Source: Antedon mediterranea
Taxonomy: Eukaryota > Animalia > Echinodermata
DNA: 64,000 nt
Direction of reading: 5' to 3'
Assembly: GCF_964355755.1 (NCBI RefSeq)
Contig: NC_092672.1
Coordinates: forward strand, 12,152,001 to 12,216,000
This document shows, piece by piece, positions 6,649 to 49,600 of this stretch. The position numbers and the translations under genes were made by a program. The notes under the pieces were generated by a model. That model saw only the letters and a program-made list of their open reading frames with translations, made no database searches and had not been told where the DNA came from. The first letter of the stretch is position 1, and each line of letters opens with the position of its first letter.

Positions 6649-7257
6649 ATTCACAAGATGTTGAAGTGTCTCCTGATTTTTGTTAATCTTCTCCTGGCCA
6701 ACAGAATAGACCACTTTCATTCTAGTGTGCAAGGCTATCAAACAACTTGACATTATCAGACAACTCTGTCCTTTCTTTGTTTTTGCATTTTTAATTAGTT
6801 TAAGGGATTGCCTGTTATATTGTTTGTTTTAACTTAAATACAAAACTCTTCAGTTTGATGCTAAAGGAGTCGCATATATTGCTAGACATGCATTTATAGG
6901 TCGTTGTTATGTTTTGTTTTGTTCACATTCAAGAAACAGAAATAAAGGAGCACCTCGAGTTTTGGACTTGAATAACAAATATCACTCGCATTATTTTTAG
7001 GACAGTCACATTATACATGATCATCAAAATTAAACATGAAGATAACAGTTTCGGAAGATTATTGTTTTAGCAACAACATATTAAAATGTTGAAGAGATTC
7101 TCTGATGCATCGAATCGAGATGCGCGTTCTTAATATGCGCTGAACTATGACGCAAAAGATGAAAATCAAACCTTTTTTATTTAACTGATCATATATGATG
7201 ACGTCACAACATCCGATTGGCAAAATGTTTACATGAATTCGTATTACTCTAGTAGCT

Positions 7258-19600: not shown

Positions 19601-21084
19601 AACCAGTAGACACGGTACAGTGGAAGACAAAAACAATTATAAAACGTAAAAATAATGTTATGTTTTATGTAAAAAATAATGTAATGTTATTTTTTTTAAA
19701 TTACGGTCTGTTAACAATTTTGAATTTCATTTCAAATAAGATTCAATTACTCATAAATCTTGTACCATTGATGCATTAATGTACGTACTGTCAGTAAGGC
19801 TGAGCTGTAATTAATTTCAGTCGCCATTGTTAAACCTTCCCATCATCTTTCGTCTTTTATTTCAAGCACAAGATGGCGCACTACGACTAATTTGAGTCGT
19901 TATAATAAGTAGGCGTGGCTTACTTATCCCTCTACGTTCAAATATATTCTGAACGATTCAGCCCGCCAGAGGGCTCTATATAAACTTGATATACCATTAT
20001 GTACTTCATTCAAAATTGTTTTTTTGTCGCATAGCGTCTTTTTGTCAAATTTTTGAAATCTTTTGATATTCTTTAAACGGATATTATTGCATAATATTCA
20101 ATAAGCTAGAGACAGCTTCGGCGAAGAGGTTAAGCAAACAAAGTGAAAGTAGATAATACAGTATCATACATACACATACATTCTTACATTGTATTTATTA
20201 CTGTAAGTTCCATTTTAAATAGGATTTCAGAAATAATCGGTAAATGAAACATCTTACTATTATGTTATGTGATATAATAATATGTACACTTTAATAAATA
20301 ATACAAATAATTGATTAGAATGATAACTAAAAGAAAACAGTTTGTCTCAATTCGAATTATTAAATAATCAATAAGTGTGAAACCGAAACTGTTATAAGTT
20401 CAATCAGTTCATTGCTAAATAAGCAAAACCAATTTATATCGTTACCCATTCCATGTTTGAATCAATTATTGTGACCGCTATTGTTTGCATATAGTATATT
20501 GACGATTTTTAAATTATCAAATAATGACATCACGCGTTATGTGGCAGATTTATTTTCAAATCTAACATTATGCACATTGAATTTCTATAAGATAATTTTA
20601 GAACAGTAGATAATGTATGTTTTGTACTGGTGGTACTGAGCTATTATTGTTTTTTTTTTAATTTTCTTTTATCATGTATATAAATATATTGTATAATCCG
20701 GGTTGTAAAATGTAAACAAACAAATGAAAATGTGTGAACTATTTTAAAACGGGATAGATGATAATGATGATCCTTTCAAGTGTATAGCAAAATATAAGAA
20801 AATTAATGAAAAAAGGAATAATACAGAATTCATAATGTAACAATGTTACTTATGAACTGTAACGACATTTACAAGTTAAATAATACGATTGTTTGTAATA
20901 TGAAATAATATGAATGTGAATAAAAGTGGTGTTGGCGCCACAAAAGAGACAAAAAAAATGTATGTTTTGTCATTAAAAACAAACAATTTATTTTACACAA
21001 TAAGAAAGTGATGCACTGTTGTCTAAATCTTCATTAAAAAAAAAGAAATAATTTATAAATAAGCTAGCCTCAGTTGCTTGTTAA
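16663..21084 (+). repeat. Left copy of a ~4.4 kb direct segmental duplication
   Basis: Colinear with 54318-63911 throughout, apart from indels and the satellite. Confidence 0.9.
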
Positions 21085-22101: not shown

Positions 22102-22631
22102 CTAAGCATTATATTCTAACTTTTCAGCAGGAACAGTCATGTTATTCTCCTTTAAAAATGCAATAAATGATTGCAAGTTATCCTCCCTTAGAATCCCCCT
22201 ATGTTCAAGATCTAATATCACAGTCCATTGGTTGTTACTTTGTTTTTTTAGAACACTTTTCAAACGGATGAGATCTCTTGTATTTTCTTTCGAAAGTGCG
22301 TCACCAAACTGAATTAGGTGTTGTCGATATGTTGAGAAGGATGTGATACACTGGTTGGTTTTATCGAATGTCTCCTTTAACAGTTTGTTGACCTCCAAAA
22401 CACCATTGGTACTAGTGACATTAATTGCGTCAATAAGAACTTTCACGTTGGTAGTGGTAACATTGCCAGATCGTTTCAATAAGTTGAAGAAATCTATGCA
22501 GTCAGCATTCTGTAGATCATTGTAAGGTGTTATCAGATCTTTGCATAACACCTTCAGTTTATCAAGAGAGCCATGTTCATCATACCAGCTCGATACGTTT
22601 ACCACGATTTTTTCAAACTCTTCAGATGATT
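22102..22631 (-). CDS. ROCO terminal exon, tandem death effector domain-like
   Basis: tgcag acceptor, phase 1. Two helical units: F..IV.....LDKLKVLC..LI...FFNLLKRSG...NVKVL and YRQHLIQFGDALSKEN...ILDLEHRGIL.EDNL, resembling DED signatures. Confidence 0.78.
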
Positions 22632-25600: not shown

Positions 25601-28600
25601 CTACCTCTATAGTGCAGTGTTGCTGGCTCTACACAACTTCTTTCTGAAAATGAAAAAGATAATTACGATAATGATTGATAGACTGTTTTACTGCTCTTAT
25701 TTGTTTGGGTTTTCCTACTTCTAACAGTTTCAAAAGTTGTGTTGGCATCACTATTGATAATCTAGTTTTTAGTCGCGTGGAAGCGACTCTATAGTTCACT
25801 ATGTCGGTCGGTCGGTCTGTCTGTCGGTCTGTCTGTCTGTCTGTCGGTTCGGTATCACTATGCGTTTTATCGCTTTCTGACCTTATCTTGATATCAGTTT
25901 AATCTAGCTAGGTCAATTTTTCACAGTATATTCCTTATGGCCAGGAATCAATGTGGTTATGTTTTCACGGTGCGCAATAAAAAATTACGCGGTCTACGCA
26001 CGATTTAACGAAATCACGTTTGTAATCATATCTTCACAACCATGAATCACAATTAAATAAAATTTGGTACTCATAAATTTCAGGGCATAAATCATCATAT
26101 GGCAATACAATTACGTGCGTAGCGCATGTAACGCATGCGTACGCGCGCTTAAAATTTTCCAAATTTATTTTCGATGAAATAAGAGTACATTTCAGGCAAT
26201 TTTAAGCGTTTACAAAATTGCCATGAGTGCGATATTTTTGCGCGCGTACTGCGCGTTAAATGTTATTGCGCACTCTTTTTGCCCGATTTCTGTTTTCTTG
26301 ACTTACTTTTTAACTCGAAATTACGTTATGCGAGCACGTCGAAAGTGACAGGCTACGCACGTGTAAATTAAAAAAATATAAATGTTTTTAAACATTTCAA
26401 CATTTTTAAACATGTTCAGTAATTTCGGTCAGTATAGTTCACTATGTCGGTCGGTCTGTCGGTCTATCGGTCTGTATGTCGGTCCGGTATCACTATGCAT
26501 TGTAGCACGCGACTTAATGGCTGTTGGCCTTGTTAAATTGTAGGGTACAGTAATGGTATTTCTAGGGCTGGTATATGTAATGCATTTTAACAGATGGTTA
26601 ATTTATCAAGACTTTACTCAAATCTTGGAAGAAAGAAGAAAACATACAATAACATTGTTCTTCATAACTTTCGAAAACAAGTTATGTTTTAAAAACACTC
26701 ATTCATTTTTAAAAGACTTATGTATGGTCAGATGATAACGTATAGTTCAATATTTCTAATACTTGTATTTAATAATAGTGGTTGGTACAGTATGTCAGAT
26801 AGTACAATATGTGTATAATAATGATCATAGTAAGTAATTATTAGGTTTCATGAATAGATTGCACGTAAAAGTTGAATAATGTTTTCATTATTTATACAGA
26901 TATCATTCCAATAGTAAAAGTGTGAAACTGTAAAATCAACCTACTTACTTGTTTTTTCTGATGTTGAAGACATACGTGTTTCAAATGTCTTTTCTCTTTC
27001 TCCTTCAGTGGCATTTTGTTCAGCTGTAAAAAACAATTCATTTTGTAAAAAAGCAACATAAAAATTGGAAAAGTTATTGTTTTGAATTCCTTTCCAATCG
27101 TGTAGAATTCTTATAAATAAATTCAATAAATAAGTGTAAACAATACCATTCAGTTACTTTAGAGAACATAAAATAAAAGTAAATAAATGTTCAGACAAAC
27201 GTACCGGGCAAAAACAGACGCTTGATATGAGCAGTATCCATAGCGTCATTCTTTCCACATTCAACCGAATTCTCGTTTAAACACCTTTTGAGATTGTGTA
27301 AGTGATGTTTATTTGGATCACAAACAGTGCATAATACACGAAGTTTGTAACCGATACCCTCGTATATAGTACAGACAGTTTGTAGTTGTTTCTTCAAGTA
27401 GCTTAGTACCTAAAATGAGACGGACATTTTATCTCAAGATATAATTTATTATTACATGTCATAGTATGTTAATTTGTTAATTTCGTGTTCATTACCTCCA
27501 TGCAGACACTTGGTTGTAGTTCTGGTTTAACTTTCAACTCTATGTTAGTGTCATCAATAGCTGTAGTAGGACTCCAGATTCTTAGGCGATATATTTCAAG
27601 CTGTTAAAAAAACGAAGAGAAACATGTATACATGGGACCATTACTAATTTCAGAATCACCTTTTGTTAAATTGAATACAAAATACATCATTAAGTTTACA
27701 ACTTTAAGTAGGGCTAATATAAACGGACATATTCGATGAGGTAGGTGATTATTAAAGTAATCCAGATTTTATGATATTTCCTTTTGCATATATCTTAATT
27801 GAAAATGTAAATGAAAGTAAAAGAGCATGTCAATAGATATACTGAATGTATATACCTTCAATGCATATGGCTTTTCTTGTGTATTGTTAATTTTGACGAC
27901 ACCTAGACTGACTCTATGTTCTTTAAAGTTGAAGTCACTACGATTCCGATATACTAGTGGATCATCACTGTCGGCTTTCGTCGTCAATTCAAGAAATGCA
28001 ACAACTAAAGTGTGGTACACAGCATCAGGGAGAAAGTCGGTCGGAGTAAGGTAAATTGATACCATTTGCACATTATCATCTTTGGTGACTTCCAGACGCT
28101 CGTTGTCCACTTTCATCCGACACGGAACCAAGAACACTCGGTTACTATCTTCAACCCCCTGTTATGAACATAGTTACATAATTTAAAAGACAAACTTATT
28201 TTTTTATTATTCTTAAAATATTAAAATAATGTACTAGTTTTACTATCTACAGTTTTTTCTTCTTACATCACATTTATGTTTATTTTCATACAATAATGAT
28301 GTTCATAATGATACTATTATTTTTATTCCTAAAAATAGAAAAAAACTAATTTAAACATAAAATGATATCAGTCTAGTGAACGTAAAATACGGAACAACTT
28401 CCTAAAAACATCACAGATTCATCTACAAAAAAACATGCGGTTCTTTCTTAAAAGATTTTTCATTTAACTCTAAACTGTTATATTAAAAAATGAAAAAACA
28501 GTCAGTTAATGTTTAGCTTTGTTTTTTTCTGTCGCTAATTTGTATTTCCATATACAATTATAACTTGGTTTAATTTGTGTTAGAATTAAACTGTTAATTA

Positions 28601-31600
28601 ATAATTGTGAATCAAAAGCCGAATTATAAATTTATCTATACCATTATCACATTTGTTTTATTATTAATTTGTTTGATAATCATTATTTTAAACATGTATT
28701 GTTAACTTTGTTTAGATTGCATTTATAATTTAGACCATACATGCATACATAATAATTGTTAATAAACCTTAGTTTAGGAGTGTGTACTTACCGCCATTTC
28801 AAAAAGTAACCGAAACTCCTTCATTACTTCTATAAACACTTCAATGTGGCCTTCTTCCTGTTGCCATAGATAACGTAGTAACTTCTCCTCGAGAATCCCT
28901 TTCTCACTTAGCTTATTCCATAACTGCATCAGTTGCTTCTGTGTAAAAATCGTCTTAACTGTATCACTAAACACACGGTAATAATTATGTTTGACGAATC
29001 AATGAAATTAAGTCAAGAACAACAATGCAATTCCTGCCTACCTTTTTAATAGTCGGTTTAACTACTGTGATCACCTTTGTCAACATCTGAATCATTATGT
29101 GAATATTTGTTATCACTGTGTTTTCTAATTTCTTGTTAGTATTTGAATACATGATTGCTCCAATGTCATTTAGGTACGTTAATGCATGTAATAGCCCATC
29201 TGTTGAAATTCCACATTCAGTGCAAATCACAGAAGCCTAATAACAAATTGAGATTATTTAAAGAATTTGCGTACACTCTATTAAATCATAGATGATTATT
29301 ATAGATCTTACTATAGTTTATTATAATATCTCTATGATTGAATGTAGACGATGGTTTTTAGAAATTAGAATAATATATTGGGTAAACTCTCAAATTGTTG
29401 TAAAAAAGAGACGTTTTGACCAAATTAAAAATATTTGAATTGATGTAAAATATATAAAGAAACCTAAAATTTTATCAGTGTCTTTAAACTTACTCTATTC
29501 TGTCTGATGTCAACTTATTTTATTAGCTGCATTATGGGAGTATGTTTGAATAGGTGTAAAACATGACCGAAGTAATAATATGTACCGCGTTTAGAGCGTT
29601 CAAAACAATTGGCTCTTTATAAATCTAGGATCATCATTATCATTTTGGCTCTTTATAAATCCAGGATCATCATTATCAGTGTTATTACCGTTGTCGTCGT
29701 CGTCATCGTAATTTTTAATAACGTTCTACCATTTTTGCAGAATTATAAAATTCTGCTAAAATGGGCAAGCCAGAATGATATACATTGTCCCAAGACCTAC
29801 AGTATATTTTATAACCAACAAAAGTCAATACATGATTATTATCTTTAAAAAATAAAAAACATACCTCAATGAAGGTAATGCATAGTCTGGTTTTTCCCAT
29901 TCCTTGCAACCTTTCTTGCAAATCAAGCCACTTGAATGGAACGGTTCTCACCATGTCCTTCATGTAACGACCAACGTTTCTCCTTAGTTGTTTTATACCT
30001 TCATGTGATTTTACAGTGTTATCGACCATGTACATCTCACGATCTACATGATCGGCATATGGCATTCCTTCCATTGTTCTAAACATTAACTGAAACTTAT
30101 CCTCCACTTCCTTTAATAAAAATATTGTTTTCATTACAAGCGTAAACAAAACAACACAAATTTATCTTTTATTACAAAATGTTCATCCACATTCTGATTT
30201 GAATACATCTAGACCGTATACTATTAATTACCGATTATTTAATATAAATGCAGAACCAATATTACCTCCATCCAAATTTTTGATTTTGACTTTTTCAATT
30301 TGTCCATATGTGTAGCAACCAAACAGATAGGAGGTGACTGGATAATCTTGCCAACAACGTCAATGGGACTTCCTGGACCATGTCGTTTCACAGTATGTTC
30401 ATAAATGGACCTTATCCAGAACATATTCATTTCCAAATTGGTCATTCCTAGTGTACTCTAATATCACAAATAAAATGCAATCTTACAAAGTAAGCTAAAA
30501 TATTCTCAATAACAAAGATATGCATATTTAATAAAGTGTATTCGAGCGAAATAAGTAGGTAGTCAACTTACTGTGGTTGAATCTCGCGGATTAGCTGGTT
30601 CATCCAAGTTATCACACGCATTAAATGCTACACAGTAGGATACTCTATTTGTGAGGAAAAACTAAACAAAATACAATTGATAATAATAACTTTTTTTTAT
30701 ACTCCACGACATTTATTAGGGATGTGTTAATTGATACATGCAATCATACTTTGGTGAACATGTTATACCACAACACAATGTCGTACTGTCACTATGAGCA
30801 AATCTCTTTTTTTTTAATAATCATTTAACATATAAAACAAAAACTATGAACAAAAGAAAAAATACATAAATCAAATAAAATTGTAAAATATAATTTAAAG
30901 GTCTGTATAATAGAATAGATACGTAAACAAGCAAATCAATGCCCTTTTTTTAAACATGCACCAATAAATTTACTTTTTAATTTTTAAGACATTTTTAAGT
31001 AATAGCAAATAACAAAATAGGAACATACCCTATGCGTTATGTAGTAGTCCAGTTGACCTGCGTAGTCCCATATAGTAGTTACGTCACTTGGAATACTTTC
31101 TGAATCATCACTTCTTTTTACAAATTTCCTAATCAGTTTCATCGCCCAACTATCTTTCTGTCTTCGCTTTTTTATTTTAGCAACAACTTTTCTTTGAATG
31201 GAGTCGGGAATTGTCAGATTTTCTTTTAGTTGACTCTCTAAATTCAAATAATGACTACAAATCAATGGGGTGTGTGTACATTAGATATGGATATGGATAG
31301 ATGGACTGGTCTGATATGTTGTGAGTAGACATAATGAATGTTAATTTGGATAAAAAAGTGTATACAATAAATAAATACATCAGTCAGGATGATTAAAGAA
31401 TTGAACGAGCAGTGAATGAACACATTTATTTGTTTGCAACAAGAAAAGAAATCTCACTCTTCCCTGGTTGGACAAACTTTTTGAGAACATAATTTTCCAG
31501 AATGTTTCATACTAATGGTACAATGCCATACATATTATTTTATCAAATATAAAGAAAACCAAATAATGAGTCCAACCCTTTCTTGCTGATTCCACTGCCA

Positions 31601-34600
31601 ATGACGTGTAATCAGACTCTCTGGAATCAGATGTAGAAGCCTCACATAAAGGAAGTTCGTTGAAAGATGTTCTTTCTTTCATCTTTGATGTAATTTCTTC
31701 CACTACAGCCTCTTCAAATATTCTCTGGGTTTGCTTGAATCTGGAGTTTTCTGTCGGCGAAAATGTATAACTAAAAATGATTATTTGTGTCGTGTTGCAC
31801 TCATAACGAATAAAATGGTTATATTATTATATACTAGAGCAGTGAAATATCACTTATATGCCTGTATAAACTCCCCAGTTTAACAAGTACTACTTTATAT
31901 TAATAATAGTAAAACAATAATATAAACAACACTCCTATGAAGTTATAGTGTGATAATTTTGTGTTTCTTTCAGTATCAGCATGTATAATACACTACATTA
32001 ATTTATTATTTACATTAAGTTGGTTTATTTACTTTTTTTAAGAAAAGAAATTACTATTTTAGATCTTGTCATGCAATTAATTTGTTGTTTATTAATTCGT
32101 GCGAGGACTTGTTAGGCCTATTACTATTAGTAAAGTGATTATATACAAAACGACCACACTTTACTTATGCAAAATGATCGTCAAAAATATTTAAAAATTA
32201 ATCAAACCTTCCACTGAAGACACAGAGTCAGAAGATATAGAACATTCGAAATCAGATATTGGATATGTTGAAACTGCACCTTGTAAATGGAATTTGGTTT
32301 CAGTTGACGTTTGTTTTTTCATATTTGCTGTGATGTGTTCAGGCGTTTTCGGGGATGTTCCTGCAATTCATTATAATATATTTTTGATACAATATAATAG
32401 ACTGTATAACATTTCACTTTTATGTATGTTTCTATACTGTATGAGTGCATCTTAACTTGATTATGATCACATAGACAGTTTGTTTAGAATATTAAAAATA
32501 CCCTTGTAATAGAAATTGTAGTAGATATTCATCATACCTATTTTTACTGGATCCACAGAAGAGATTGCTGATGATTCCAGTTGGGAATCAGATTTAGATG
32601 TTGACATATCTGAACTTCCTTCACCATCATCCATTTCTTCCTTTATTAACTGTGTTGCAAGTTTTTCTGCAAGTGCATCTTCTCGTATTTTCTTGTTGAG
32701 CTCCATAACTGTTAAAAAAAAAGGTGAAATAAGATTGTACGATAAACATCATAGAGATAAATAAAAATACTAAAATTACAGAAATGAGATACATCATCAT
32801 ATCATCATCATCACCTGTAAAATACAATAAATATGTAGGTAATTTATGTAATTATAGACCCAAATGCATTTTTAAGTATTTGATAAAAATATTATTTCCA
32901 GTGTACCTTACCGGTACGTTTTTACCTTTATTATGATACTAATTAATCTCTATACACAAATTGGCCAAAGCAGGCAATTATGCGTTTGTTGAAGGAAGAA
33001 GAAAGAGAGAGTTTCTCTCTTTTGTGGGGACAGCTCACTTTGAACGAACAGTTAATGGGTTATTTGGTATGGTTGAATTCTTCTTTTCAAACTTACCGTC
33101 GATATCTTCCTTCTTCCACCTGTCACACTCTTTTCCAATTGCTTGAAACAATGTCGTTGTGATAGCAATACCATCAGTAGATGGTTCGTTGGATTTAAAT
33201 CTATAATAATGAATAATGAACTCTAAAAGGTCGGATTTAATGAAAGGAGAATGTATCCAATAGTTCATCTTAAAATATTAATATATTTAAAATAAAAACG
33301 AAGTGAAGATCACAAGTAAATAAGCATATGCTTCACACTTCTTGGGGATATTTAAAACAAACTGAAACTTTCAGCAACAGAATTTGCATAAACATCGTCG
33401 TCACCATCACCGTCTATGTCACCATCATCGTCATTATCATCATAATTGCCATTATAATCATCATCATTATTATTATTCGAAAAAGAATGAAAACCCGTTA
33501 CTCAAAGACGAAACTTCAGGTATCAACTATTTAAAATAAGAACCTCACTAATACCAATTTTTGTATTTTATTGAATAATTTACATATTAAAATACTCAGG
33601 ACCAAACTTATTATAAACAAGAAATCCAAACAACTCGTTAAATGTTGTCAATTGCATTAGAGATACTTATGAAAAAAGATAAAGTTTTTTAAATGGTTCA
33701 AAGAACAAAAGATTGATTTTAATATATTTTTTGATAAGGAATGTTATGCCATGACTATTATAGAGAACATGAATACACGATTTTAAATAAATGAGCACTT
33801 CATATATTGTAATGGTAAAAACACCATTCAACTTGTATCATAATTGCTGTTTATTGAGGAAGATCATGTATTTTTTATTAGTGCATCTCATAAAATAACT
33901 TTTTTCTTTTGTTACCTTTGTCCAAGCATGGCCTTTACACAGCTTGTTTTTCCAGCACCTTCTTTTCCGAGAAACATACATCTTGAATTTACAACTGCAA
34001 TTTCACCATTTTCAAGTTCATTTTGAAATGATCTAATGGCGCTCTCACCTCTAGCTAATATTTCAACTGGAACTAAATTGCAATTAAAATAAATGCAAAA
34101 TATACAAAAGGAAGTGTACAAATACAAATATTTTTCACTTAAGAATCAATTCAAAGCCAGAGTTTTAAAAATGTCATGAGAGCTCATCTTCGTCACATTC
34201 ATACAGTTCAAATGTTCAGTACAATGTTAAATATGTGTCATTAGTAATACACAGTTTAATATTCATGATGCAAAACTCAAGAAAAGTGTATTAATACAAA
34301 CTTACTGTCAAGTAACTCCAATATCGTATTTTTCTTTTCTTTGGAGATATGACTATCCTTCAAAGCAGATGCTGGTGTTTGTCCTCGCTATACAAAAAAT
34401 TGTATTAAAGTATTATCCACTGTTACTTTACTAATCTATATATAAATTTACGTAAGGAAAAAAATCGGTAAATCACCCCTTACTTCTAGAATTTTTATTT
34501 GATGGTATATATAGTTGGTTCGTACTTTTGGTACTGATTTTAACCACCTTATGTAACTCTGTTTACTAATTAAATTGAGTTAGATAATTATTTATTGACG

Positions 34601-37600
34601 ATTAAAGCGAATTTACGATTTGCCACGAATAGAGGTGTTTTTCACAAATTGTTTTACATTATATAAACACATATACAAATAATCTTTATTACTGACAGTT
34701 GCTTCTCAACGTTTGTATTAATTAATAGTGTCATTACAAAAATATATATATATATTGCACCCATCCTCTTTTCCATCCCTCAACCCTAATGTTACATACA
34801 AAACACAAATTAAGTTTGTTTAAATTTGACTCAAACAATTGGTTCAGAGGGTGCTAATTTTAGTTGAGTACATAAATCACCGTTTTTATTTATTCGTCAT
34901 TGTAAATGACATTTATTGTCCTGTGGTACGTACATTTGAAATCGCCAGTTTTTTAACGCTGAAATTACTATGTATTCAAGAAGACTCTGTGGATGACCTA
35001 GATGCGAGCGAAGCTTAATGTGTGCATATTAAGTGCACACATTAATATGACACAATCTGAGTACCTTTGCACTAACAAACAACAATACTAACTGCTCTAC
35101 CATTTAATGTTTATTGTGATTGAATACACTTAGTCTTTAAAAATCTCTCAAAACCTATATTTTGAATTTTTAATTGTCTAAATTGTTCTGTCTATGTAAA
35201 GCGCATTAAGGCTTTCAGCATAATGCGCTAATTGAAGTACCAGTTATTATTATTATTATTAAAAATGCTATTGAAAAAAATATTATAAAAGAATAGTCGA
35301 TACTGATTAAATGTACATGTTAATTATCGCATCTATGAGAATTTACCACCACTAGCAGCAACCCGTGCTCCGCATTGTCTTTGTCGGCTTTAATATATGA
35401 TTATATAATAATTCGCATGGGATGAGTAAGTATCATATAAGCGCACTCTTCCCTCATAAAACGCCATGGATTTTGTTATACACCAAGTATTCCTTCACTT
35501 TTAAGTAACTATGAGCTACAAAATAAAAGCAATACTGGATATGGGACTTTACGAAAATGGAAAAAATTGTGCTGTGTGAATACGATGATGCGCGCAATAA
35601 CATAACGAAAGTATAAAATGGCAAACTATATTATTTTGGGTGTTTTTCGTGGTGTATTAAGTATTATTTTGATACATTGAAATAAAAAGTGAACAAAAAT
35701 CGAACGGAATAGAAAGTGCAGGAGATTAAAATATTTTAATAAAGTATTGGAATAAATCAACACAAAAAATAGTCGAAATTTGACGATGCGCTCGGACACA
35801 AACTATTACTTTTTGGGTGTATTTTTTTTTGAGACGTCAAATTACTGCTATTGTTTGCCTTTTTTAGTGTTTATCCTTAAAATTCAGGAAAGTGACATAG
35901 CCTATCGTGTGCGGCCCATCAATAAACATCAGTGTGCCAAATGTGAGCACGTACCGTTCGGTGGCTTTGGAAGAGATACATAAAATTAAAAAAATTTAGT
36001 AGCATTAATATTTAGTTGCTAACATAATGTCTTTAAACAATTGGCGCCCTTTCTGATATTGTTTGGCTCCATCAAGATAATGATTACTGTGTATTAGTTA
36101 ACACAAGATTTGTAATATTTTAAGTTGATAGATACTCCTAATCAAAATAAGAGTATACCTTGGATATAAGGGTAATGGTTTGCTTAATAAGCACAATTTA
36201 AAAATGCAAATGCAATGTTGCTGCATTAATTGACGGTACCTTGTTTCTTGCTTTAAGTGATGCTCCGTGGGCTATGAGACTGTTCACTATTTCTATTTTA
36301 CCACTCGTGCCAGTCCCAACGTGTTCATGTAGCGGTGTGTTTCCCTCCTGGAAAGCAGAAAGTTGTATGTATAATAATATACATTTTACACTTTAGATAC
36401 TAGAACTAAGGTTTAAACAAATTTAATATTGTATTCGTTCTACTCCTACAATTATAACAAGCAATTAACTACTACATCCAATTATTATATATTTTGCTTT
36501 TCGTGGGCTACTCGTCTTTCAGTAGGTAACTTCGATGATCATCCCTGCCAAATCGCCATGACTTGCGATTATACAAGTACAATTATTTAAACTCTGGTGG
36601 CAACTGGAAATGCGTCTGGCACGTGTACAGTCGGGAATGCGTCCAACGGATGTGAAGCATATATGTCTATCGATTATAGATTGAAAGTTAGATGATAAAT
36701 CTGAATTGGGGTAAAAAATTGACTTCAGTAATGTAAACGGGGTCCCATCGTTTTATTACTTTTTATGAAATCATACACATAAGCGCCATTATTGGTTCGG
36801 CATCATAGTCCGCAAGGTCTATGGTCAAGAAATTGTTAAGTAAATGGAGTATTTTGTTAATTGTCTACGATATACCACATTATAACAGTACTGTAGATAA
36901 TACAACTAGTGGATTTCAATTGGGACGTGGAGAGGTGTTAGCAATGAACATACTTTTGAAAGTACTGGTATTACCGTCTTTGATAAATAAATAACTTTTT
37001 ACACAATGAAAATAAAGTAAACAAACACAAGGTTTGTTTTATACGGGAGCTCATTCGAAATAATAACATTAATTATTAATTTTTTTAATCATTGTAAGAG
37101 CAATTTACATTGTTTGTTGCTGTGATTGATGCTCCGTGAGCTATGAGACTGTTCACTATCTCTACATTACCCTCGCCATACCAAACGTGTTTATGTAGCG
37201 GTGTGTCTCCATCCTGGAAAGAAGAAATTAGATTAAACTTGACGCATTTTTTTAAGAATACAGGTAGTATTTTTTTTTTCAGGTAGTATTATATTACATA
37301 TTTATCCTTTTCTACATTCATTTTGTAATTATTTAATAGTGACTGTAAATTATAATAAGTTATTAAGAAAATAAGAAGAAAATAATACAATTTGCTGAGT
37401 TTAATTATTATAATACAGATGGGTTAGCATTGAACACATGTTAAGAAAATAATAATACAACTTGTACCCTGGAAAGAAGAAAGTTAGATTAAACTTTACG
37501 CATTTTTTTAAAAGAATACAGGTAGTATTATATTACATATTTATCCTTTTCTATATTTCATTTTGTAGTTTATTGAGAGTGACTGTAAATTATATAGAAA

Positions 37601-40600
37601 GACCTATTTTAAGAAAATAATACAACTTGCTGATTTTAATTATTATAATACAGAGGGGTTAGCAATGAACACATTTTAAAAGTATTGATTTAGCGTCTTT
37701 TTCGATCTAAAACGCTACAGCTACACGATTTTCAATATATTTTAAATTGTATTTTTGCTTTGATAATAACTATACATTGTTTCTACTAAAGAAAATCACA
37801 ATAAACGAATCTAGAGTTTGCTTATAACGGGGGACAATTTAAATTCACTTGTAATGTTAACTAATACGAATAATTACGTTACGATTTTTAAATCATTGTA
37901 AAAGAGTAATTTACATTGTTTGTTGCTGTGATTGATGCTCCGTGGGCTATGAGACTGTTCACTATCTCTACATTACCATCGGCAAACCTAAAGTGTACAT
38001 GTAGCGGTGTGTTTCCCTTCTGAAAAGAAGAAAGTTAGATTAAACTTGACGCATTTTTTTAAGAATACAGGTATTATTATATTACATATTTATCCTTTTC
38101 TATATTTCATTTTGTAATTCATTAAGAGTGAATGTAAATTATATAGAAAAATCTAGTATTAAGAAAATAATAAAACTTGTTTAAAAAGTATTGATTTAGC
38201 GTCTTTTTCGATCTAAAACTCTACAGCTACACGATTTTCGATATATTTTAAATTGTATTTTTGCTTTGATAATAACTAAACATTTTTCCAATGAAAAACA
38301 CAATAAACGAATCTAGAGTTTGCTTATAACGGGAGATAATGTAAATTCACTTGTAGTGTTAACTAATACGAATAATTACGTTAAGGATTTTTAAATCATT
38401 GTATAAGAGTAATTTACATTGTTTGCTGCTTTGATTAGTGCTCCGTGAGCTATAAGACTGTTCACTATCTCTATATTACCACGGCCCAACTCAACGTGTG
38501 CATGTAGCGGTGTGTTTCCATTCTGGAAAGAAGAAAGTTAGTATTATTATATTTCATTTTTATCCTTTTCTACATTCATTTTCTAATTTTCTAAACCCTA
38601 CAGCTACACGATTTTCAATATATTTTAAATTGTATTTTTGCTTTGATAATAACTAAACATTTTTCCAATGAAAAACACAATAAACGAATCTAGAGTTTGC
38701 TTATAACGGGAGATAATGTAAATTCACTTGTAGTGTTAACTAATACGAATAATTACGTTAAGGATTTTTAAATCATTGTATAAGAGTAATTTACATTGTT
38801 TGCTGCTTTGATTAGTGCTCCGTGAGCTATAAGACTGTTCACTATCTCTATATTACCACGGCCCAACTCAACGTGTGCATGTAGCGGTGTGTTTCCATTC
38901 TGGAAAGAAGAAAGTTAGTATTATTATATTTCATTTTTATCCTTTTCTACATTCATTTTCTAATTCATTAAGAGTGAATGTAAATTATATGGAAATACCT
39001 GGTATTAAAAAAATAATGACTAACTGATTTCAATTAAGACATGCAGAGGATTTAACAATGAACATCATTTTGAATGTATTGATTTTAGCGTCTTGTTTAA
39101 TCTAAAATTCGACAGCTGTACATGATGTTTAAATATCGTAAATTATATGGTGATGGTTAATAACTATAAATAATATAATTTATTAAATGAATAAACATAT
39201 TCCTACGCCTAGACATTTCGTTTAGATTCAAGTAAACTTTCATGAATACTGAATTAGTAGATATGTATGTATTTTATCAAACCGCCTTCAAAACATAATT
39301 GCAAATTCCAACAATACACACTACGGTGAATTCAATAAATATTTTGTTATATTATTAATCTACTATCCATCCCACCTTCATCCTACAATAAAAAAAAATA
39401 TTACGTAATTTTGAATGCAAGCTATGTGTATGTATCGTGTTATATGACATTTGCCTTTTTGTTATATTTGTTGCATTTGTATTTTATCCTATAGGTGACG
39501 TACTGTCTGTAGTTTACCATTTTTTTTTTCTACTACGAATAATAACGTTAATGATTTAAATTATAGTAAATCTCTGTCAACGCTACCAAACTGTATCAAT
39601 AAAGTTTCGTAATGTCTGTATTTTACCAATTTTATCATATCTTTACTATATTTATTTAATATGTGACAAGCAGGACAATTTGTTTTACATTTCTCAGAGC
39701 TTGATGATCTCAAAATCACAATAAATGCGTTAAAATTGAATCAAACAACAATAATAACAAACTACTATTTATCAACTGTGAGATTTAACAACAATGTATC
39801 TCGTCTCTTTCCCTCAACCTTGCCGTTAAATAATTATAGAGGAGGTAGTTTCAATAAACTTTGGCAGACGGCAAACATACAATGTATAGAGTGCGTTTAA
39901 ATATTTTCTGAGCTTACTAATGAGATCAGTATTTGTAGTAGACATAAGGACAATATATTTTAATTTAGATGGATTATTTGTGTAAGAGGATCGAAAACAT
40001 ATACTTAGTTCTACTATCTGAATAAACTAAAAGGAATTCATCTTCAATTGATTGTAGAGAGCATAATTTGCATAGTCTATCATTTCTATTAAGCCTAATA
40101 CGATTCCATCTTCCTTTTTCTAGTTATAATATTCCTAGTCTTAGTTAAGTCACACTGTGTCTATGTTTTTAATTTTAATTAAGTATTCTTCCATAATTCC
40201 AACATAATTTACATTGAATGCGTGTGAAATATTGGAGCTTATAGAGAGTGTAACCTATTATCTCATAGAATTATGTCGTTCAATGAGCCTCGCCTTTGTT
40301 TAAATTTTGAAATAAAAAATATTGTTGACCTGTTGAGCATGCCATGTTGCCAAATCCATTTATACATACTAAGTTTTACATCATTGACCCAAATCGCTCA
40401 TTTTGTTGCGTTTTTCTATGTTGAAAATCATAAAATTGTTTAATGAATTTTTCATAATCTATTTGGCTTACTCTCAGCCACTAACGAATTCAATTAATGA
40501 TACTTAGATTTTGGATAGGAAATCCTCGACATTCTCCTCTCATTACATTACTTAGAGCAGAATTTTCTATTCCTAAAAGATATTTTTATTTTAAAATCAA

Positions 40601-43600
40601 AATATAATCCAAGTGGTATGAATAAATTGTTCATCTGCTTGAAAAACTACAAGTCAGTCGATGCTACAAACCACAAGGAAATTCATTATATCTCAGATGC
40701 TAGTGAAGTAGTATCTACTATTAGCTAACCCCAAAGTTACCCCAGCTAAAAAAAACAAGGTATCAAGTGTATGTAGCTAACCGGGTACAACAAATCAACT
40801 ATGCAACTTCCATAGAAAACATCTTCTAATCCGAGTGATATAGTCAGTGGAGCCGTGCGTGCTAACATTAAGCAATTGAGTTCAGATACCGGATGGGTGA
40901 GTAGTTCTACACTTTTTCACCAGGTAGTTCTTAACAAACAAAGGCGGTTGGCCGAAACCGATGACGAATAGCGTATGGTTGTTGCTTCAGAACTAAAATA
41001 TATTCGCTCATTCCACACTAATGTTGACAAAGTTGCTTCAGAATGGTTTTATAACAGACAGATAAAATTAACTATAAATCACATTAAATGTATTGAATGT
41101 TCATTCCCCTTAAAGGAGCCAACACGTAGTAAGGCATATTTTTTAGATATGCCTATCAATTATAATACAGACGGGTTAGCAATGAACACATTTTAAGAAA
41201 ATAATACAACTTGCTGATTTTAATTATTATAATACAAACGGGTTAGCATTGAAAACATTTTAGAAGTATTGATTTAGCGTCTTGTTCAATCTAAAACGCT
41301 ACAGCTACACGATGTTTAATATATTTTAAATTGTATTTTTGCTTTGATAATAGGCATAACTATACATTTTTCCAATGAGATACACATTAAACGAATCTAG
41401 GGTTTGTTTATAACGGGAGATAATGTAAATTAACTTGTAGTGTTAACTAATACAAATAATTACATTAATCCTTTTTAATTCATTGTAAAAGAGTAATTTA
41501 CATTGTTTGTTGCTGTGATTGATGCTCCATGGGCTATGAGACTGTTCACTATCTCTATATTACCACGGCCAAAATGAACGTGTTCATGTAGCGGTGTGTT
41601 TCCATCCTGGAAAGAAGAAAGTTAGCATTATTATATTTCATATTTATCCTTTTCTACATTCATTTTTCATTAAGAGTGAATGTAAATTATATAGAAATAC
41701 CTGGTATTAAGAAAATAATGACTAACTGATTTCAATTAAGACATTCAGAGGATTTAGCAATGAACATCATTTTGAAAGTATTGATTTTAGCGTCTTGTAT
41801 AATCTAAAATTCGACAGCTGTACATGATTTTCAAATATCGTAAATTATATGGTGATGGTTAATAACTATAAATAATATAATTTATTAAATTAATAAACAT
41901 ATTCCTACGCCTAGACATTTCGTTTAGATTCAAGTAAACTTTCATGAATACTGAATTAGTAGATATGTATGTATTTACCAAACCGCCTTCAAAACATAAT
42001 TGCAAATTCCAACAATACACTCTACGGTGAATTCAATAAATATTTTGTTATATTAATAATCTATTATTCATCCCACCTTCATCCTACAATGAAACAAAAA
42101 TGTTACGTAATTCGTTTCTCCCATTTGCTATGAGGCTTTTGAATGCAAGCTATGTGTATGTATCGTGTTATATGACATTTGCCTTTTTGTTATATTTGAT
42201 GCATTTGTATTTTATCCTATAGGTGTCGTACTGTCTGTATTTTACCAATTTTGTTTTAACTAGTACGATTAATAACGTTAATGATTTTAAATAATAGTAA
42301 ATCTCTGTCAACGCTACCAAACTGTATCAATAAAGTGTCGTACTGTCTGTATTTTACCAATTTTATCATATCTTTACTGTATTTATTTATTATATATTTA
42401 TTATATATAATAAAGTTGTTTCAGAATGGTTTATAACTGACAGATACAATGAACTATAAATCGCATTAAACGTATTGAATGTTCATTCCCCCCTTTAAGG
42501 TAGCAACGCAAACAGATTGATCAATTAGAAGCAATACAAAAGAGGGTATAAATTATATAATATTATAAAATAAAAACTATATACAGTATATGAAAATGCT
42601 CTCAGTGTATGTAATTTAGAAACCCTCGCTACTAGAAGAAAACACCTATGTCTAAGGTTTGCTAGAGACCTCGAAAAGTCGGCATATTTTCAATAATGTG
42701 TGTTGCTCCTATTTTAGCTGCATCGTTCCTTTCCGAGAGAGGGCGTATGTAAATAGAATCCATGTTATAAGTTTCGCATTGACTACATGTGTTCTAGAGT
42801 TCGGCTTCTAAATGTCTTATTGTGCCGAGATAGTGTGTAATTTACTAAACTATTAGGCCGCACATTGCTTGTAAGTTGTTAGAGTATTATATTACAATAA
42901 TTATAATTACTAGATGGTACGCTCGCTTCGCTCGCGTACCATCTGGGTCTTGCCCACAGATGGTTCTCGAATACATAATAATTTCAGCGTTAAAAAACTG
43001 GCGATTTCAAATGTACGTACCGCAGGACAATAATACATGTCGTTTACGGGAACGAATAAATAGACACTGTGATTTATGTACTGAACTAAAATTAGCACCC
43101 TGGGAATTACTTCCGAAAGAGAAACTTGTCACAAAATGAGACCAATTGTTTAAGTCAAATTTAAACAAACTTAATTTGTGTTTTGTATGTAACATTAGGG
43201 TTGAGGGATGGGAAAGAGGATGGGTGCAAAGAGGAACAATTTTTAAATATATTCTTTATCCATGTAGTAACGAAATATTAATTGTTTTCATGTTTTACAA
43301 ATAATATACCACTAAACACAGTAAAACATTGCGATGTAATACTTTATTGAAACTATCACCGTCCTAGTCGATTGAAATAGTACAGTACATGTAACGATAC
43401 ATCACTACGACGTGTATAATATGTTTATATAATGTAAAACAATTTGTGAAAACCACCCCTGTTCGTGGCAAATCATAAATTCGATTTAATCGTCAATAAA
43501 TATTAAATTATCTAACTCAACTTAATTAGTAGGCCTAATGGTTTTCAATTGTTTCTTAGAGCCAATTCATACTTAAGTTGGTTCCTAACCCTACCCACCA

Positions 43601-46600
43601 AAGTTGTTCTGCGTTTAGGGCATGTGATGCACCGTAGGCCTATCCTCTACTGGCTTTACAACGCTACTCATGCCAGTGAGGGAAGGGTGATGATGTCACT
43701 CGTGGCTGGTTTAACTGCAATAATAAAGATTTGTACATAATATACGGCGACTGAAAACGCTAGTTCATTATCCGTTAAAAAAAATCTATATCCAACCTCT
43801 GCAGCACAGATTGAAAAAAAAATGGATCGAATTTCTGTTATGAGTATACAGTACTTGCCTTTACGACGCCTGAGGGAATAGACACTTGTGGAACAGAGAA
43901 TGTTCCATTCATTTCAAATCAATACATTTGCATAAACGTTTATTAAATCTATCAAAATAGTATTTTTTTAAGAAAATCGGCCTGTCTTCAACATTATGAT
44001 ACTGTACTCGAGCTGTTCAACCGGTTTTCAGCTATTAAAAACAATTATCGTAGGAGGAGATAGGAAAATGCGAAGCCTCCTCGCATTTTTGTGGTGGGTA
44101 TTTTTCAAGATGGACATCCATTAGACAGTGTATACCACGATCGGAAAACACCCCTATTTGGGGCAAATCGTTGAACCTAAATTCGTTTTAATCGTCAATA
44201 ACTAATTATCTAACTTAATTTAATTAGTAAACAGGGTTACATCAGGTGGTTAAAATCAGTACCGAAAGTACGAACCAACTTTATATATGGGTGAGTGGCC
44301 GAGCGGTTAAGACAGTGGAACCGTAATCACGTAGCCATAACATCGGCAGGGGTTCGAGGCTCACTCACTCCATGGTTCTGGTGGTAGAACGAGTCTTCTC
44401 GGATAAGGACTATAAAACGTAGGTCCAGTGTACACAACTTGCTCGTGTGCACTTTAAAGAACCTAGTACATCTTTCGAGACGAGTAGGGGGTTACCCCGG
44501 TGTATTAGTACATCACAGCCACTGATCACCAACTGGGCCCTCTGGGAGACCAGTCTTTGACTGAAGAGGTTACCCAGTATAAATATATATTTCAATTTCA
44601 ATTCCATACCATCGAGTAAAAATTGTAAAAGTAAGGCGCGATTTACCGAATTTTGCCCTTACGTAAATTTATATATAGATATGAACCACAGTAGTGGCCT
44701 AGATTATTAATGCTATACTACATTGTGGTCGTAGGCCTGTGTAGATTGAATCGTATACGATCCCTTGAACAGCATGGCGATAAACACGAGTCTCCGTGTA
44801 GAGGGCGGTGTTCTATTTTGTATGCCGTATCTATAGAAGTAGTACGTCCGTATGAGGGCGCTGTTGATTTTTTGATGACTTTGTTTAATATGTTCTTTAG
44901 GCATGTACACCTCCGTAAGAGGGCGCTACGTTTGATCTGTTTTGCAGATAGTTTTATATTTATGTTATGTATATTATTACTATTTGGAGCTGGATTTAAG
45001 TATGCTTAATTTCAGTTAGTTCACCCTGTTTATGGCTGAATTTGCTGTATTAAAGAGTCAGTCAACAAGTGATTGTGTTGCAGTATTTTTTGTCGTGGAT
45101 TGGGTTTACCTACTGAATAGCGAGTTTGACGGTTCAAGCTCGTGAGGTCAACACAGTGAAAAGCAATGTCGACTTCTAGTAGAAGACGTGATGGTGGGAG
45201 AGATGATGCAAGGTCAATAGGGTCAAGAAGCCATAGATCGAAGGCATCATCGCAGTCAGTGTCATCATTAGAAGTATCTGCTGCACAAGATCGTGCTGAT
45301 GCTGCTGTAGCGAATGCTCGTGTTACATTTGCGAAGAAGAAGTTAGAGGCGTTGAAGGCTGAAATGGAAGCAGCTAAAGCTATGTTAGACATAGTCGAAG
45401 TAGAGAAAGAAGAAGAAATGGCTGCATCACAGGCTAGAGCCAATGTCCTTCAAGCAGAATTGCAACATATGTCTTTTGAAGATATTGAGGAAGAACTTTC
45501 ACAGTTAGAAAGCAATAATCAGATGGAAGAGGTGCAAGGCGCACCCCAAGATGCAGTACCCAGTCAAAGAATGGCAGAGGTGCTTAACGAACTTCCAAAG
45601 ATGGAACCCAGTCAGCGGGTAGAAAATTATCTAAACAATGCTGTAGAGGTACCAACGTCTACTCTTAATCCTGGAGCTAGATCTTACGAACCAAATCATA
45701 TGCAGGAGTACATTCGAATACTGGCACGTCAGCGATTACCCTTGCAAGAACCGGATATTTATTCTTGAGATCCAATAATGTTTCTTCCGTGGAAAAGATC
45801 CTTTAAAGCTATGGTGAAAACAGCCTGTGTGGACACTGTTGAAAAGCTGTCATTCCTGTGTAAATATACTACTGGCGAAGCAAAAGTTTTTGTTGATCGA
45901 TTCAGACTAAGGCATGTTGAAGATGTTGACAAGGCCTATCATGAGGCCTGGACGCGATTTTTTTTTTCGTACATAAGTTGGGGACCCCTTCATGAAACGT
46001 CACAAAATAAACATGAATAATTCATCAGTTAAATTTGTTGTTCCGTGTGCACCCAAGCGTATAGCAACAAGAAGTGATTACACAACTGCGATACGATACT
46101 TTCTACAGTAGGCCTAGGATTATAAGTCAATTCACGTGATTGCCTTCGCGCACTCTTCTTCACACAAAATGTGTCGTCGAGTCGAGGCTAATCGACAGCT
46201 AGGCAAGTACGGCAAGACATTAAACTAAGTAGTAATTCATTGGACATAGCCCAAAGAAAGCTTAGACCCACAAGAATAAAGAATGTGTATAATTTGTGTA
46301 CTGTATTTTTTTAATTCTGCTATTTTATTATCAAACAATATGCATGTACTCAAAGGAACTTTAAAAATGCGCGTATATTAACACATGAAATGGGAAGATT
46401 TGACCCACGAGAATGAAAATGTATTTTTGTGTAATGTTTATTGTTTAATTTTGCTGACTTATTACTCGGATTGTGTCATACCAAAGATAGTGTAAATATC
46501 TTTGGTCATACCTAACACACACACACCCACACAGCTACTACAGTACTACTACTAGAATAGACATGGGTTTAGAGACTAATAATTAGGCCTAATAGTATTA

Positions 46601-49600
46601 ATAGAAACTATAGTTTTAACACGTAATTCTTTAGTAAAAAATTATATTAAAAACACCATAAACTAAAGGCTGATTATTTCGACAATCCACACAAAACGCC
46701 GCTATTTTTCTATGAAATCGCACGCCGCAACAACAGCGGAGATAGGCCTAGAATCGTACCGCACTTGTGTAATCACTTCTTGTTGCTATACGCTTGGGTG
46801 CACACGGAACAAGAAAATTTAACTGATGAATTATTCATGTTTATTTTGTGACGTTTCATGAGGGGGTCCCCAACTTATGTACGAAAAAAAAAATCGCGGC
46901 CTGAACTGAGCTAGAAGACAGGTTCGGGAACCAAACCTTAATATCAGCTGAAATCATCCTGAGACTTACCAAATACAGAAGATTCAAAGAAGGTGATTTG
47001 ACCGCACTCCAAGAACTGGCTGATTTGTGTGGAGACGCAGTTGCTCAAATGCAGGAGCTACCCCATCTGATTACGTTAAACACTCCTCATGGTATTAAAC
47101 CAATTGTAGAGAAGTTACCACACTTCATAATTAATAAATGGAGAGAAAAGGTCGCAAAACATAAAAGGAAAATAAAAACGTTCCCGAATTTCAGCATGTT
47201 CACAGAGTTTCTAAGTGAGATGGCTCACATCCAACGTGATCCTGATGTCCCAAGAGGAATTGTTGATGAGGTCAAAACTGATACACCGGGAAACTACCGT
47301 ACACAGACAGGTTACCGTCCTAAGACCACGCAACGTTCAACTGTAAATGTGAGAATAACTGAGGTGAATAAATCTGAAGAGATGTGTCCGCTACACAATG
47401 GTCAGCATCCGTTGGTAGACTGTAGAAACTTTCTGGCCAAGACTTATGCTGCCAAGAAGTCATTCCTTAAGGAAAACCAAGTATGTTTCCGATGTCTCTC
47501 ATCTACATCACACATGGCTAGGAATTGTGATATAAATGTCAGGTGTGGAGAATGCGGTAGTGATCGTCACCCGACTGCATTCCATGGTGACCGTCCGCAG
47601 AAGGCGAATGGCGGAGAACATGTAAAAGCGGAGCAAAAAGCAAATGGCGGAGAGCAAGTAAAAATGGATCAAAAAAGGAAAAAGGTGAGAAGGAAAATGG
47701 CGGGGAGCAGGGGACAGAGTCACAGAAGACGAAGGAAAGAGACAAAGTAGTAAGTACTACATGTACGGATGTCTACCGTGGAATTGGGCTGAGCCGATCG
47801 TGTGCTAAAATCTGTTTAGCAAAATATATTTAGAAGACCATCCTAACACTTTCATAAAAACCTACATTATACTAAACGACCAAAGCAATCGCTCGTTGGC
47901 CAAGAGTGAGGTATTCGACCTTTTTAACATCAATGCAAGACTTACGTCTTATACTTTGAAGACCTGTTCGGGAGCGGCTGAAGTTCAAGGCCGAAAACTG
48001 GAGAAGCTGATAATTGAGTCCATGGATGGTAAAACAAGAATAGCAGCCCCATCGCTACTTGAATGTAATGACATACATGGGAACAAGGCAAAAATTCCCA
48101 CTCCAGAGACAGCCAGCAATTTTCCTCACTTGAAGGATATTGCGGACAAGATACCACCCTTGGATGAGAATGCAAATATTACCATACTGCTCGGCCGAGA
48201 TGCTGCTCAAGCTCATAAAGTCCGAGAAGTACGCAATGGACCAAATCACTCTCCATGGGGCCAACGACTTGATCTAGGCTTGATGGTTATTGGCGACGTC
48301 TGCTTAGGGGGAGCCCACCAAAAGAATGTTGTCACCGCCAACAGAAACCATATAAAGGTTTTGAGAAATGGTAGGCCATCCGCCATGTTTACAACTTGTA
48401 AAAGAATGATCAGTGCGAAGGAAATAACCCTGCAACGCAGCTGTGACGTACTCGGTGGTAATGTATTCTAACAGAAAGAAGATGACGTGAAGTATGGAAT
48501 GTCCAGAGAAGATGTGGAGTTCGTGAAACTTATGGGAAAAGAGATGAATCGTATGCAGTCTCTTATTCGCACACTGGATAAGAAGCTAGAGATGAAAGTT
48601 CACTACTTAGCGTTCATGGAGAAAGTATTCTCAAAGCAACATGCTGAGCTCGTCGAAGATGACAATCATGATGAAGAGTGCTGGTATATACCACACTTTG
48701 GTGTGTACCATCCACAAAAGCCAGGGAAGATCCGGGTGGTTTTTGATTCCAGTGCGCAATTCCAAGATACATCACTTAACAACGTGTTAATGAGTGGACC
48801 AGATCTGGTAAATGGGTTGCTTGGTGTATTGATACGGTTCAGGCAGGATCCTGTGGCGTTTGTAGCAGACATTGAGCAAATGTTATACTCATTTCAAGTC
48901 GTGGAAGAACACAGAGATTATCTTCGGTTCCTGTGGTTCGAAGACAACGACCCAAGCAAAGTATTGAGAACGTATCGGATGAAAGTTCACATCTTCGGAA
49001 ACAAGCCTTCTCCAGCTGTTGCTACGCTAGGACTGAGAAAGACTGCACAAGAAGGAGAGAGCAAGTTTGGCGCAGATGCAAGAGAGTTCGTGGAGAAGAA
49101 TTGTTATGTCGATGATGGGCTGAAGTCTTTAGCTACTTCAGATGAGGCGATCGACCTGCTCAAGCGCACACAAGCCATGTTAGCCACAGCTAATTTACGA
49201 TTACACAAGATCGTCTCAAACGATGCAAAAGTGATAGCAGCTTTCTCACCTCAAGATGTAGCAAGTAACATGTGCAACCTCGATCTCGGATCTGACACCC
49301 CTCTTATGCAAAGGTCATTAGGGGTACTGTGGGATGTCAAGTCAGATGCTTTTACTTTCTCTATTACGGAGGTTAGCAGCAAGGCATTCACTAAGCGAGG
49401 AGTGCTGTCAGAAATCAACAGCATATATGACCCAATTGGCTTTGCGTCACCCGTCATTATAGAGGGAAGAAGGCTGTTAAGGGAAATGACAAGAGATCAA
49501 TGCATAGATTGGGATGAGCCATTACCGAAACAGCTATATGATTCATGGCAGAAGTGGCAAAGCTCCATAGTTCAACTTTCAGAGGTTCTGATCCCTCGTC

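Follow-up and report, generated by a model that had tools for sequence, protein, structure and literature searches.

Gene anatomy and the ankyrin exon array

We analysed a 64-kb stretch of the genome of the crinoid Antedon mediterranea (positions 12,152,001 to 12,216,000 of contig NC_092672.1; hereafter the window, to whose positions all coordinates refer), the minus strand of which carries a gene for an ankyrin-repeat protein of the ROCO type. The gene model runs from 53105 to 22102 and comprises 26 exons with 3936 nt of coding sequence (1311 codons), no internal stop and exclusively GT-AG introns. It was assembled with the proteins of relatives as a guide, and splicing was deduced from splice signals, reading frame and a relative's predicted model. 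From its N-terminus, the encoded protein consists of a capping repeat, six ankyrin repeats, a second capping repeat, a Roc GTPase domain with a long insertion, a COR domain, a linker and tandem death effector domains (DEDs) (Table 1).

Within the Roc domain the P-loop, DxxG and G4 motifs are intact, while a long low-complexity insertion separates the G2-like and G3 motifs. The relative P0137, which is 95–96% identical to the window over the Roc part and identical to it over the last 616 residues, scored 39.7 bits against the Pfam Roc cut-off of 27 and 57.2 bits against the COR-A cut-off of 35.3, together with a weak COR-B match. Judging by these motifs, we classify the product as a ROCO (Roc-COR) protein with predicted GTPase activity; the ROCO context that a first-pass annotation of the sequence had proposed for the array was borne out, as Roc motifs are followed by COR in the 26-exon model. 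No kinase domain was found in P0018, a second relative, or in P0137, and the window model opens with an ankyrin cap; P0137 likewise gave no NACHT or NB-ARC match. For the last coding exon, a sequence search against solved structures yielded only one weak, unrelated match (E 0.46). Its predicted model (predicted local distance difference test score, pLDDT, 88.6) matched best the tandem DEDs of caspase-8 and cFLIP (template-modelling score 0.71–0.73; two matches at E up to 0.001), and since this fold search settled what the sequence search could not, the exon was assigned to a tandem DED. Hydropathy indicated no signal peptide or membrane segment (maximum 1.62), and the protein is therefore predicted to be cytoplasmic.

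The six internal ankyrin repeats each occupy one exon, numbered A1 to A6 in transcript order. All six exons are bounded by an AG acceptor and a GT donor with similar splice signals (14–16 pyrimidines of 20 plus CAG at the acceptors), and the five distinct exons all exceeded the Pfam Ank cut-off (A3 is identical to A2). The array of six one-repeat, phase 0-0 exons at 36240..41606 that the first-pass annotation had described was confirmed in its placement, splice bounds and phases, as were the residues it had listed at codons 1, 8, 11, 12 and 14, with that of A6 at codon 14 hinging on where the extra codon of this exon is placed. The annotation had overlooked, however, the two capping exons, one of them 11 kb upstream. 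When the entire window was searched with a profile, no credible seventh, orphan or inverted copy emerged (one extra match, E 7.3).

At the DNA level the distinct exons are 83–91% alike. A4 and A5 are separated by ten non-synonymous and no synonymous differences in codons 1–15, which alter eight residues, and by a single synonymous difference in codons 16–35, a pattern that the earlier annotation had read correctly. Its further claim of an almost invariant framework holds for the repeats overall, which are near-identical, but less so for their second half, where 3.5 to 5 non-synonymous sites separate A2/A3 and A6 from A1. The introns flanking A6 could not be aligned with those of A1–A5, and the last residues of A6 agree with the terminal repeat of three relatives. 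A2 and A3 sit in a recent 377-bp tandem duplication (38216-38965) with copies that are 99% alike. An assembly artefact as their source is disfavoured rather than disproved, given that 2 of 200 flanking bases differ between the two units, which favours a real duplication. That repeats can be gained, as had been proposed, is evident from this duplication and from the differing repeat numbers across family models.

Table 1. Positions in the window of the exons of the ankyrin-ROCO gene and of the retrotransposon within it
Feature	Positions	Strand	Remarks
First coding exon (start codon, 14 nt)	53092..53105	-	in frame in 26-exon model
N-terminal capping repeat exon, ends in phase 0	52851..52947	-	77% identity to P0018 residues 5-35
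Ankyrin exon A1	41502..41606	-	105 nt, 35 codons, phase 0-0, Pfam Ank passed
Ankyrin exon A2	38795..38899	-	105 nt, phase 0-0, Pfam Ank passed
Ankyrin exon A3	38418..38522	-	105 nt, phase 0-0; sequence identical to A2
Ankyrin exon A4	37915..38019	-	105 nt, phase 0-0, Pfam Ank passed
Ankyrin exon A5	37109..37213	-	105 nt, phase 0-0, Pfam Ank passed
Ankyrin exon A6	36240..36347	-	108 nt, 36 codons, phase 0-0, Pfam Ank passed
C-terminal capping repeat exon, phase 0-1	34306..34387	-	89% identity to P0018 residues 245-272
Roc GTPase exons	29865..34072	-	P-loop residue 311, WDYAG 585, THMD 677
COR exons	27205..29236	-	Pfam COR-A E 7e-6 on one exon
Last coding exon, tandem DEDs	22102..22631	-	Pfam DED E 1.4e-7 and fold match
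Degenerate BEL/Pao retrotransposon, antisense in intron between N-terminal cap and A1	42698..52023	+	Pfam Peptidase_A17, rve, DUF5641, DUF1759

Variable codons, their structural position and the gene family

Selection was assessed on the five distinct exons (35 codons; A3 was excluded as a duplicate and one codon of A6 was dropped) with our own codon-model code (GY94, F3x4) rather than PAML, using the models M1a and M2a and naive posteriors. A single ratio of non-synonymous to synonymous rates (omega) was estimated at 1.45–1.69 on the five best trees. M2a was preferred over M1a with a likelihood-ratio test (LRT) statistic of 18.7 (P 9e-5), and placed an omega of about 11 on 15% of sites, with posteriors of 1.0 for codons 11 and 14, 0.97 for codon 12, 0.89 for codon 1 and 0.63 for codon 8; about 55% of sites were at omega 1 in the null fit. 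The statistic ranged from 18.7 to 27.3 on five of the 15 trees tried; masking the A6 loop gave 13.6, leaving out A6 gave 13.9 and permitting double-nucleotide changes gave 12.5–16.5, while null simulations with three recombination breakpoints exceeded 5.99 in 5 of 90 cases and 12.5 in none. Diversifying selection at codons 1, 8, 11, 12 and 14, the central claim of the first-pass annotation, therefore survived changes of tree, removal of A6 and recombining nulls.

The excess of change is also visible in plain counts. Between A1–A4, leaving the A2/A3 pair aside, 5–8 of the 15 bases in the five codons differ, compared with 4–9 of 90 in the rest of the exon. As a neutral yardstick, the 200-nt downstream intron flanks in the same comparisons differ by 5.6–9.9%; the upstream flanks are less even (4–23%; 28 of 720 bases in the upstream introns of A1 and A2) and the flanks of A5 are more divergent (10–24%). 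A local mutation hotspot was rejected because silent positions adjoining the variable codons do not vary, the third positions of codons 10, 13 and 15 being invariant in all five exons.

The five sites had been picked from the window sequence alone, before any comparison with relatives. In eight repeats of P0018, P0001 and P0137 they took the top five ranks for entropy among the 35 positions (P 9e-5), with the caveats that these repeats are mutually related and that the residue at the start of the P0001 repeat could be an artefact of its model. Aligning each window repeat with its counterpart in P0018 showed identity at 4 of 29 variable residues as opposed to 156 of 180 framework residues, and the N-terminal part of Roc following the ankyrin domain was identical at 142 of 145 residues. 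Fourteen repeats gave 13 distinct variable-site signatures, other exposed positions of helix 2 were nearly invariant across the 13 distinct repeats, and the mean protein identity among five repeats of P0018, the model of which strings all six of its repeats in series, was 0.77.

Structure was modelled on P0018, a single database sequence standing in for the spliced window protein. The prediction shows ankyrin repeats stacked between caps, its pLDDT exceeding 90 over most of the ankyrin part, and designed ankyrin repeat proteins (DARPins) were the nearest solved structures in a fold search. In its secondary structure, codon 1 lies ahead of helix 1, codon 8 inside it, codons 11 and 12 at its end and codon 14 in the loop leading to helix 2. 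This loop exceeds that of ordinary ankyrins by about two residues and varies in length (34–36-residue repeats). The codons that we take to be the standard randomised positions of DARPins (1, 3, 11, 12, 33 and 35) had a mean entropy of 1.69, compared with 0.41 elsewhere (P 0.001). From ankyrin numbering and the relative's secondary structure we infer that the variable sites share one binding surface; the randomised positions of DARPins lie on the concave face (PMC8229355). The array resembles DARPin libraries in its N-cap, near-consensus internal repeats, C-cap and putative concave-face variation (PMC8229355, PMC6077149), but it is natural, and in its 34–36-residue repeats helix 1 is followed by a variable insertion (codon 14), whereas the design has 33 residues and no such insertion. 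Moreover, codon 8 varies in the window repeats, and there is little variation at codons 3, 33 and 35.

Similar genes form an expanded family with differing repeat numbers, as far as predicted models, some of them clearly partial, can tell: six Antedon models hold about 2, 4, 5, 6, 8 and 13 repeats of 33–51 residues. A search with one COR-side exon returned 17 matches out of 20 candidates, all in A. mediterranea and 11 of them on one 39-Mb contig, and a Roc-COR search gave 28 matches (11 in Antedon, 16 in Anneissia japonica and one in a coral). In a crude motif scan the Anneissia members showed a small number of repeats that are unlike one another. A profile search of 1.84 billion representatives brought in additional family members, but among its best 150 matches the crude scan revealed no more near-identical arrays of this subfamily outside Antedon. 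The last 616 residues of the window protein are identical to those of the A. mediterranea RefSeq models XP_071944617.1 and XP_071944625.1, while its N-terminal half is closer to XP_071943867.1 and XP_071944626.1 (143/145 and 142/145 over the first Roc part) than to the models matching at the C-terminus (138). This identity to one pair of models and closeness to another suggest exchange between neighbouring copies. In the 13-repeat Antedon model, P0019 (XP_071943401.1), we observed some repeats with long variable-loop insertions (45–51 residues) and no Roc P-loop; the ankyrin module is thus joined to other C-terminal parts as well.

Neighbouring repeats and related systems

The degenerate BEL/Pao long terminal repeat (LTR) retrotransposon takes up about 9 kb of the 11-kb intron that separates the N-terminal cap from A1, with gag and pol spread over several frames. 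Its LTR-like ends, near 42698-42907 and 51838-52023, are 97–100% alike, so that insertion was probably recent; the element is a passenger outside the encoded protein. Downstream of the gene, 16663-21084 resembles the gene's own upstream region (54318-63911) at 85–96% identity, which fits a tandem cluster. No second N-cap exon or other family exon was found in the window, and the duplicated region probably marks where a tandem copy ends or what is left of one. A 71-bp satellite fills 58002-63032 (71 copies, 95% matches), and a single related unit lies near 19741-19816 within the duplicated region. By eye, a tRNA-like stretch of the short interspersed element type was seen at about 44285-44370, ARAGORN calling no tRNA in the window, and non-LTR retrotransposon-like fragments with endonuclease- and reverse-transcriptase-like open frames at 3644-7418 on the minus strand.

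Among nine runs, none of RNA was listed as carrying the sequence, an outcome without bearing on expression. Contigs from four runs were aligned to 33800-41750 at 80% likeness. Dispersed intron repeats dominated the alignment (112 joints, 732 differences), with no exon-to-exon joint and no readable exon allele among the rows listed. One contig of run X6, over 37148-38501, joins two framework pieces through 31 foreign letters that look like a different ankyrin-like segment, probably of another gene. An X6 contig joint that skips the A4 unit has just 23 letters on its short side and was not used.

The window gene unites features of two published systems, brown-algal leucine-rich repeat (LRR)-ROCO genes and fungal ankyrin NLRs. 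With the former, known from Ectocarpus and Saccharina, it shares a Roc-COR core preceded by N-terminal repeats, one per symmetric exon (PMC3341825, PMC11378527), as well as near-identical paralogues differing in the repeat domain and few positively selected sites per repeat. In contrast, its repeats are ankyrins on phase 0 exons of 105–108 nt, whereas those of the algae are LRRs on phase 2 exons of 72 nt; the orphan and inverted repeat exons found in Ectocarpus introns are absent from the window; and the window gene adds a C-terminal tandem DED and an animal host, while alternative splicing has been reported for the algal genes. Because of its ankyrin repeats and the lack of orphan exons it is not a member of the Ectocarpus type, although it appears to work like a brown-algal LRR-ROCO gene. 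The first-pass comparison with Ectocarpus exon shuffling thus holds for symmetric one-repeat exons and diversifying selection, but not for orphan or inverted exons.

Fungal ankyrin NLRs, such as Podospora Pa_3_8560, likewise combine near-identical repeats with repeat-number variation, which in Antedon is seen among family models, and linkage to a cell-death domain, and have five positively selected positions (inner helices and hairpin) in non-canonical repeats of 34–36 residues; near-identity was judged here by per cent identity and in the fungal papers by T-REKS score (PMC4986451, PMC13449251). The window protein appears to work like these NLRs too. Its switch is, however, a Roc-COR GTPase and not a NACHT or NB-ARC STAND ATPase, its order is reversed (sensor first, effector last) and its repeats are split by introns.

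DAPK1 (death-associated protein kinase) has ankyrin repeats, then Roc-COR, then a death-fold domain, an order that the window protein shares; it differs in having no kinase domain, in bearing a tandem DED instead of a single death domain, and in belonging to an expanded family with near-identical hypervariable repeats, whereas DAPK1 is one conserved gene. Ordinary ankyrin genes also have one repeat per phase-0 exon, so that novelty does not lie in the layout of the exons by itself. In Mytilus edulis, CAG2210870.1 (P0023) carries many ankyrin repeats that are up to 97% alike and vary behind helix 1, followed by COR and a death-fold domain. Its repeats, in contrast to those of the window, are of 33 residues and two alternating types, with a death domain rather than DEDs and another framework, and it probably represents a separate expansion. 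Near-identical repeats (best pairs 85–100%) were also observed in P0024, P0025, P0075 and P0115, which together with P0023 comprise the Mytilus ankyrin-COR-death protein and several ankyrin-Roc proteins. Such sequences suggest that the design of near-identical repeats on an ankyrin-Roc protein arose repeatedly and is not unique to crinoids.

Previous work has reported conserved-repeat NLRs in animals too (PMC13449251), TIR-ROCO proteins in Aplysia (PMC9334734) and an annelid caspase bearing Roc (PMC11463336), and bacterial Roc-COR proteins are regarded as conflict systems (PMC8195603); the accessible parts of the last three papers do not describe the Antedon family. On the exon phase of ankyrins, nothing was found in the accessible parts of PMC1266365. 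Full-text searches, in a collection from which most subscription journals are missing, turned up no description of a hypervariable ankyrin-ROCO in animals and no paper on crinoids and ROCO together; animal ankyrin-ROCO architectures may be included in the domain tables of PMC11378527 and PMC13449251. The novelty claimed by the first-pass annotation is thereby narrowed: an ankyrin-ROCO of this kind was not found described for animals, but the ankyrin version of the pattern had already been published for fungal NLRs (PMC4986451).

Interpretation and rival explanations

Diversifying selection on the modular ankyrin sensor of an animal ROCO-DED family is well supported, whereas the function of this sensor, including an immune role, is what we infer from it. 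We consider it probable that this intact ankyrin-Roc-COR-tandem-DED gene with its five selected codons encodes an intracellular sensor of non-self that is diversified in the germline. Unequal crossing-over and gene conversion among intron-exon units would copy and mix repeats, and because every unit is phase 0-0, repeats could be added, dropped or mixed with the frame kept; exon skipping is possible as well. Selection would fix new residues on the hairpin, the first helix and the lengthened loop lining the ankyrin groove, and paralogues would build up different arrays. Ligand binding is predicted to switch the Roc-COR GTPase, whereupon the C-terminal tandem DEDs would cluster and bring in caspase-8- or FADD-type DED partners, leading to cell death or immune signalling.

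Several observations weigh against this reading. The selection test spans just five sequences, and codon 8 is weak, its posterior rising to 0.99 only when A6 is left out. The Pfam DED match falls below the curated cut-off, the splicing of the exons is predicted from splice signals, frame and a relative's predicted model, a retrotransposon lies inside the gene in the intron ahead of A1, and the putative shared surface was mapped by residue numbering. Among the models with identical last 616 residues, P0136 has no repeat and P0137 one different repeat; the window copy's own array was in no protein among the 120 best of 334 matches; and P0008, P0141 and P0019 contain several repeats copied exactly or almost exactly, with variation less tightly confined. 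Ligand, activation and death output are predictions.

The variable surface might be a target instead of a sensor, in a protein with a fixed role in host death signalling and exposed residues that evolve to escape inhibitors from pathogens or symbionts. Positive selection by itself cannot separate binding from escape, and the tandem DED output would make the protein plausible prey of antagonists. We nevertheless regard this as improbable, given that change is limited to the usual partner-binding positions of ankyrins, with the exposed helix 2 positions almost unchanged, and that family expansion and repeat-number variation suit a repertoire better than one target. We are just as doubtful that the receptors sense polymorphic self (allorecognition, transmissible or altered cells) and not microbes, in the manner of fungal HET-type NLRs: a multi-chromosome expansion such as this one is generally more typical of pathogen-facing families, and the window revealed no polymorphic gene that could be a co-evolving partner, although the closest pattern, namely near-identical repeats with few hypervariable sites and a death domain, is known from fungal allorecognition (PMC13449251, PMC4986451).

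Individual animals might themselves generate most of the diversity, either at splicing, where symmetric exons would be left out or combined, or by rearranging somatic DNA. Any subset of the six phase 0-0 exons, with their similar splice signals, would stay in frame, and alternative splicing of LRR exons has been reported for brown-algal ROCO genes (PMC11378527). However, the acceptors are typical of constitutive exons, the window holds no orphan or inverted exons, P0018 uses its six repeats in series, six exons including one duplicate would give a small repertoire, and germline differences between copies already explain the observed variation, all of which makes this explanation highly unlikely. 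Least credible of all, with only a very slim chance of being right, is a by-product of recent duplication and gene conversion that homogenise a relaxed or dead array in which a few sites vary by chance or local mutation. The share of sites at omega 1 in the null fit, the retrotransposon within the gene and RefSeq models with a matching C-terminus that lack this array would be compatible with it. On the other side stand an open frame over 1311 codons, the same five sites being most variable in independent repeats, invariant silent positions next to them, and the failure of all 90 recombining neutral simulations to attain the observed statistic.

The diversified receptors of invertebrate deuterostomes mostly belong to large families of Toll-like receptors, NLRs and scavenger receptors. 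If true, a receptor in which a hypervariable ankyrin sensor and a tandem-DED output are coupled to a ROCO GTPase would be a different design; it would carry into animals the principle of shuffled repeats that has until now been proposed for brown algae and fungi, and offers a testable case for ROCO GTPases acting as NLR-like immune switches. The residues under selection largely coincide with the surface that is randomised in protein engineering, and include an extra loop besides. The strongest version, which we hold to be unlikely, is a natural DARPin library of cytoplasmic ankyrin-ROCO-DED receptors, with one-repeat exons that are swapped between genes and, in each individual, also combined through splicing or rearrangement of somatic DNA, as an anticipatory repertoire wired to caspase-8-type death; if true, it would amount to an unrecognised system of diversified immune receptors in a deuterostome.

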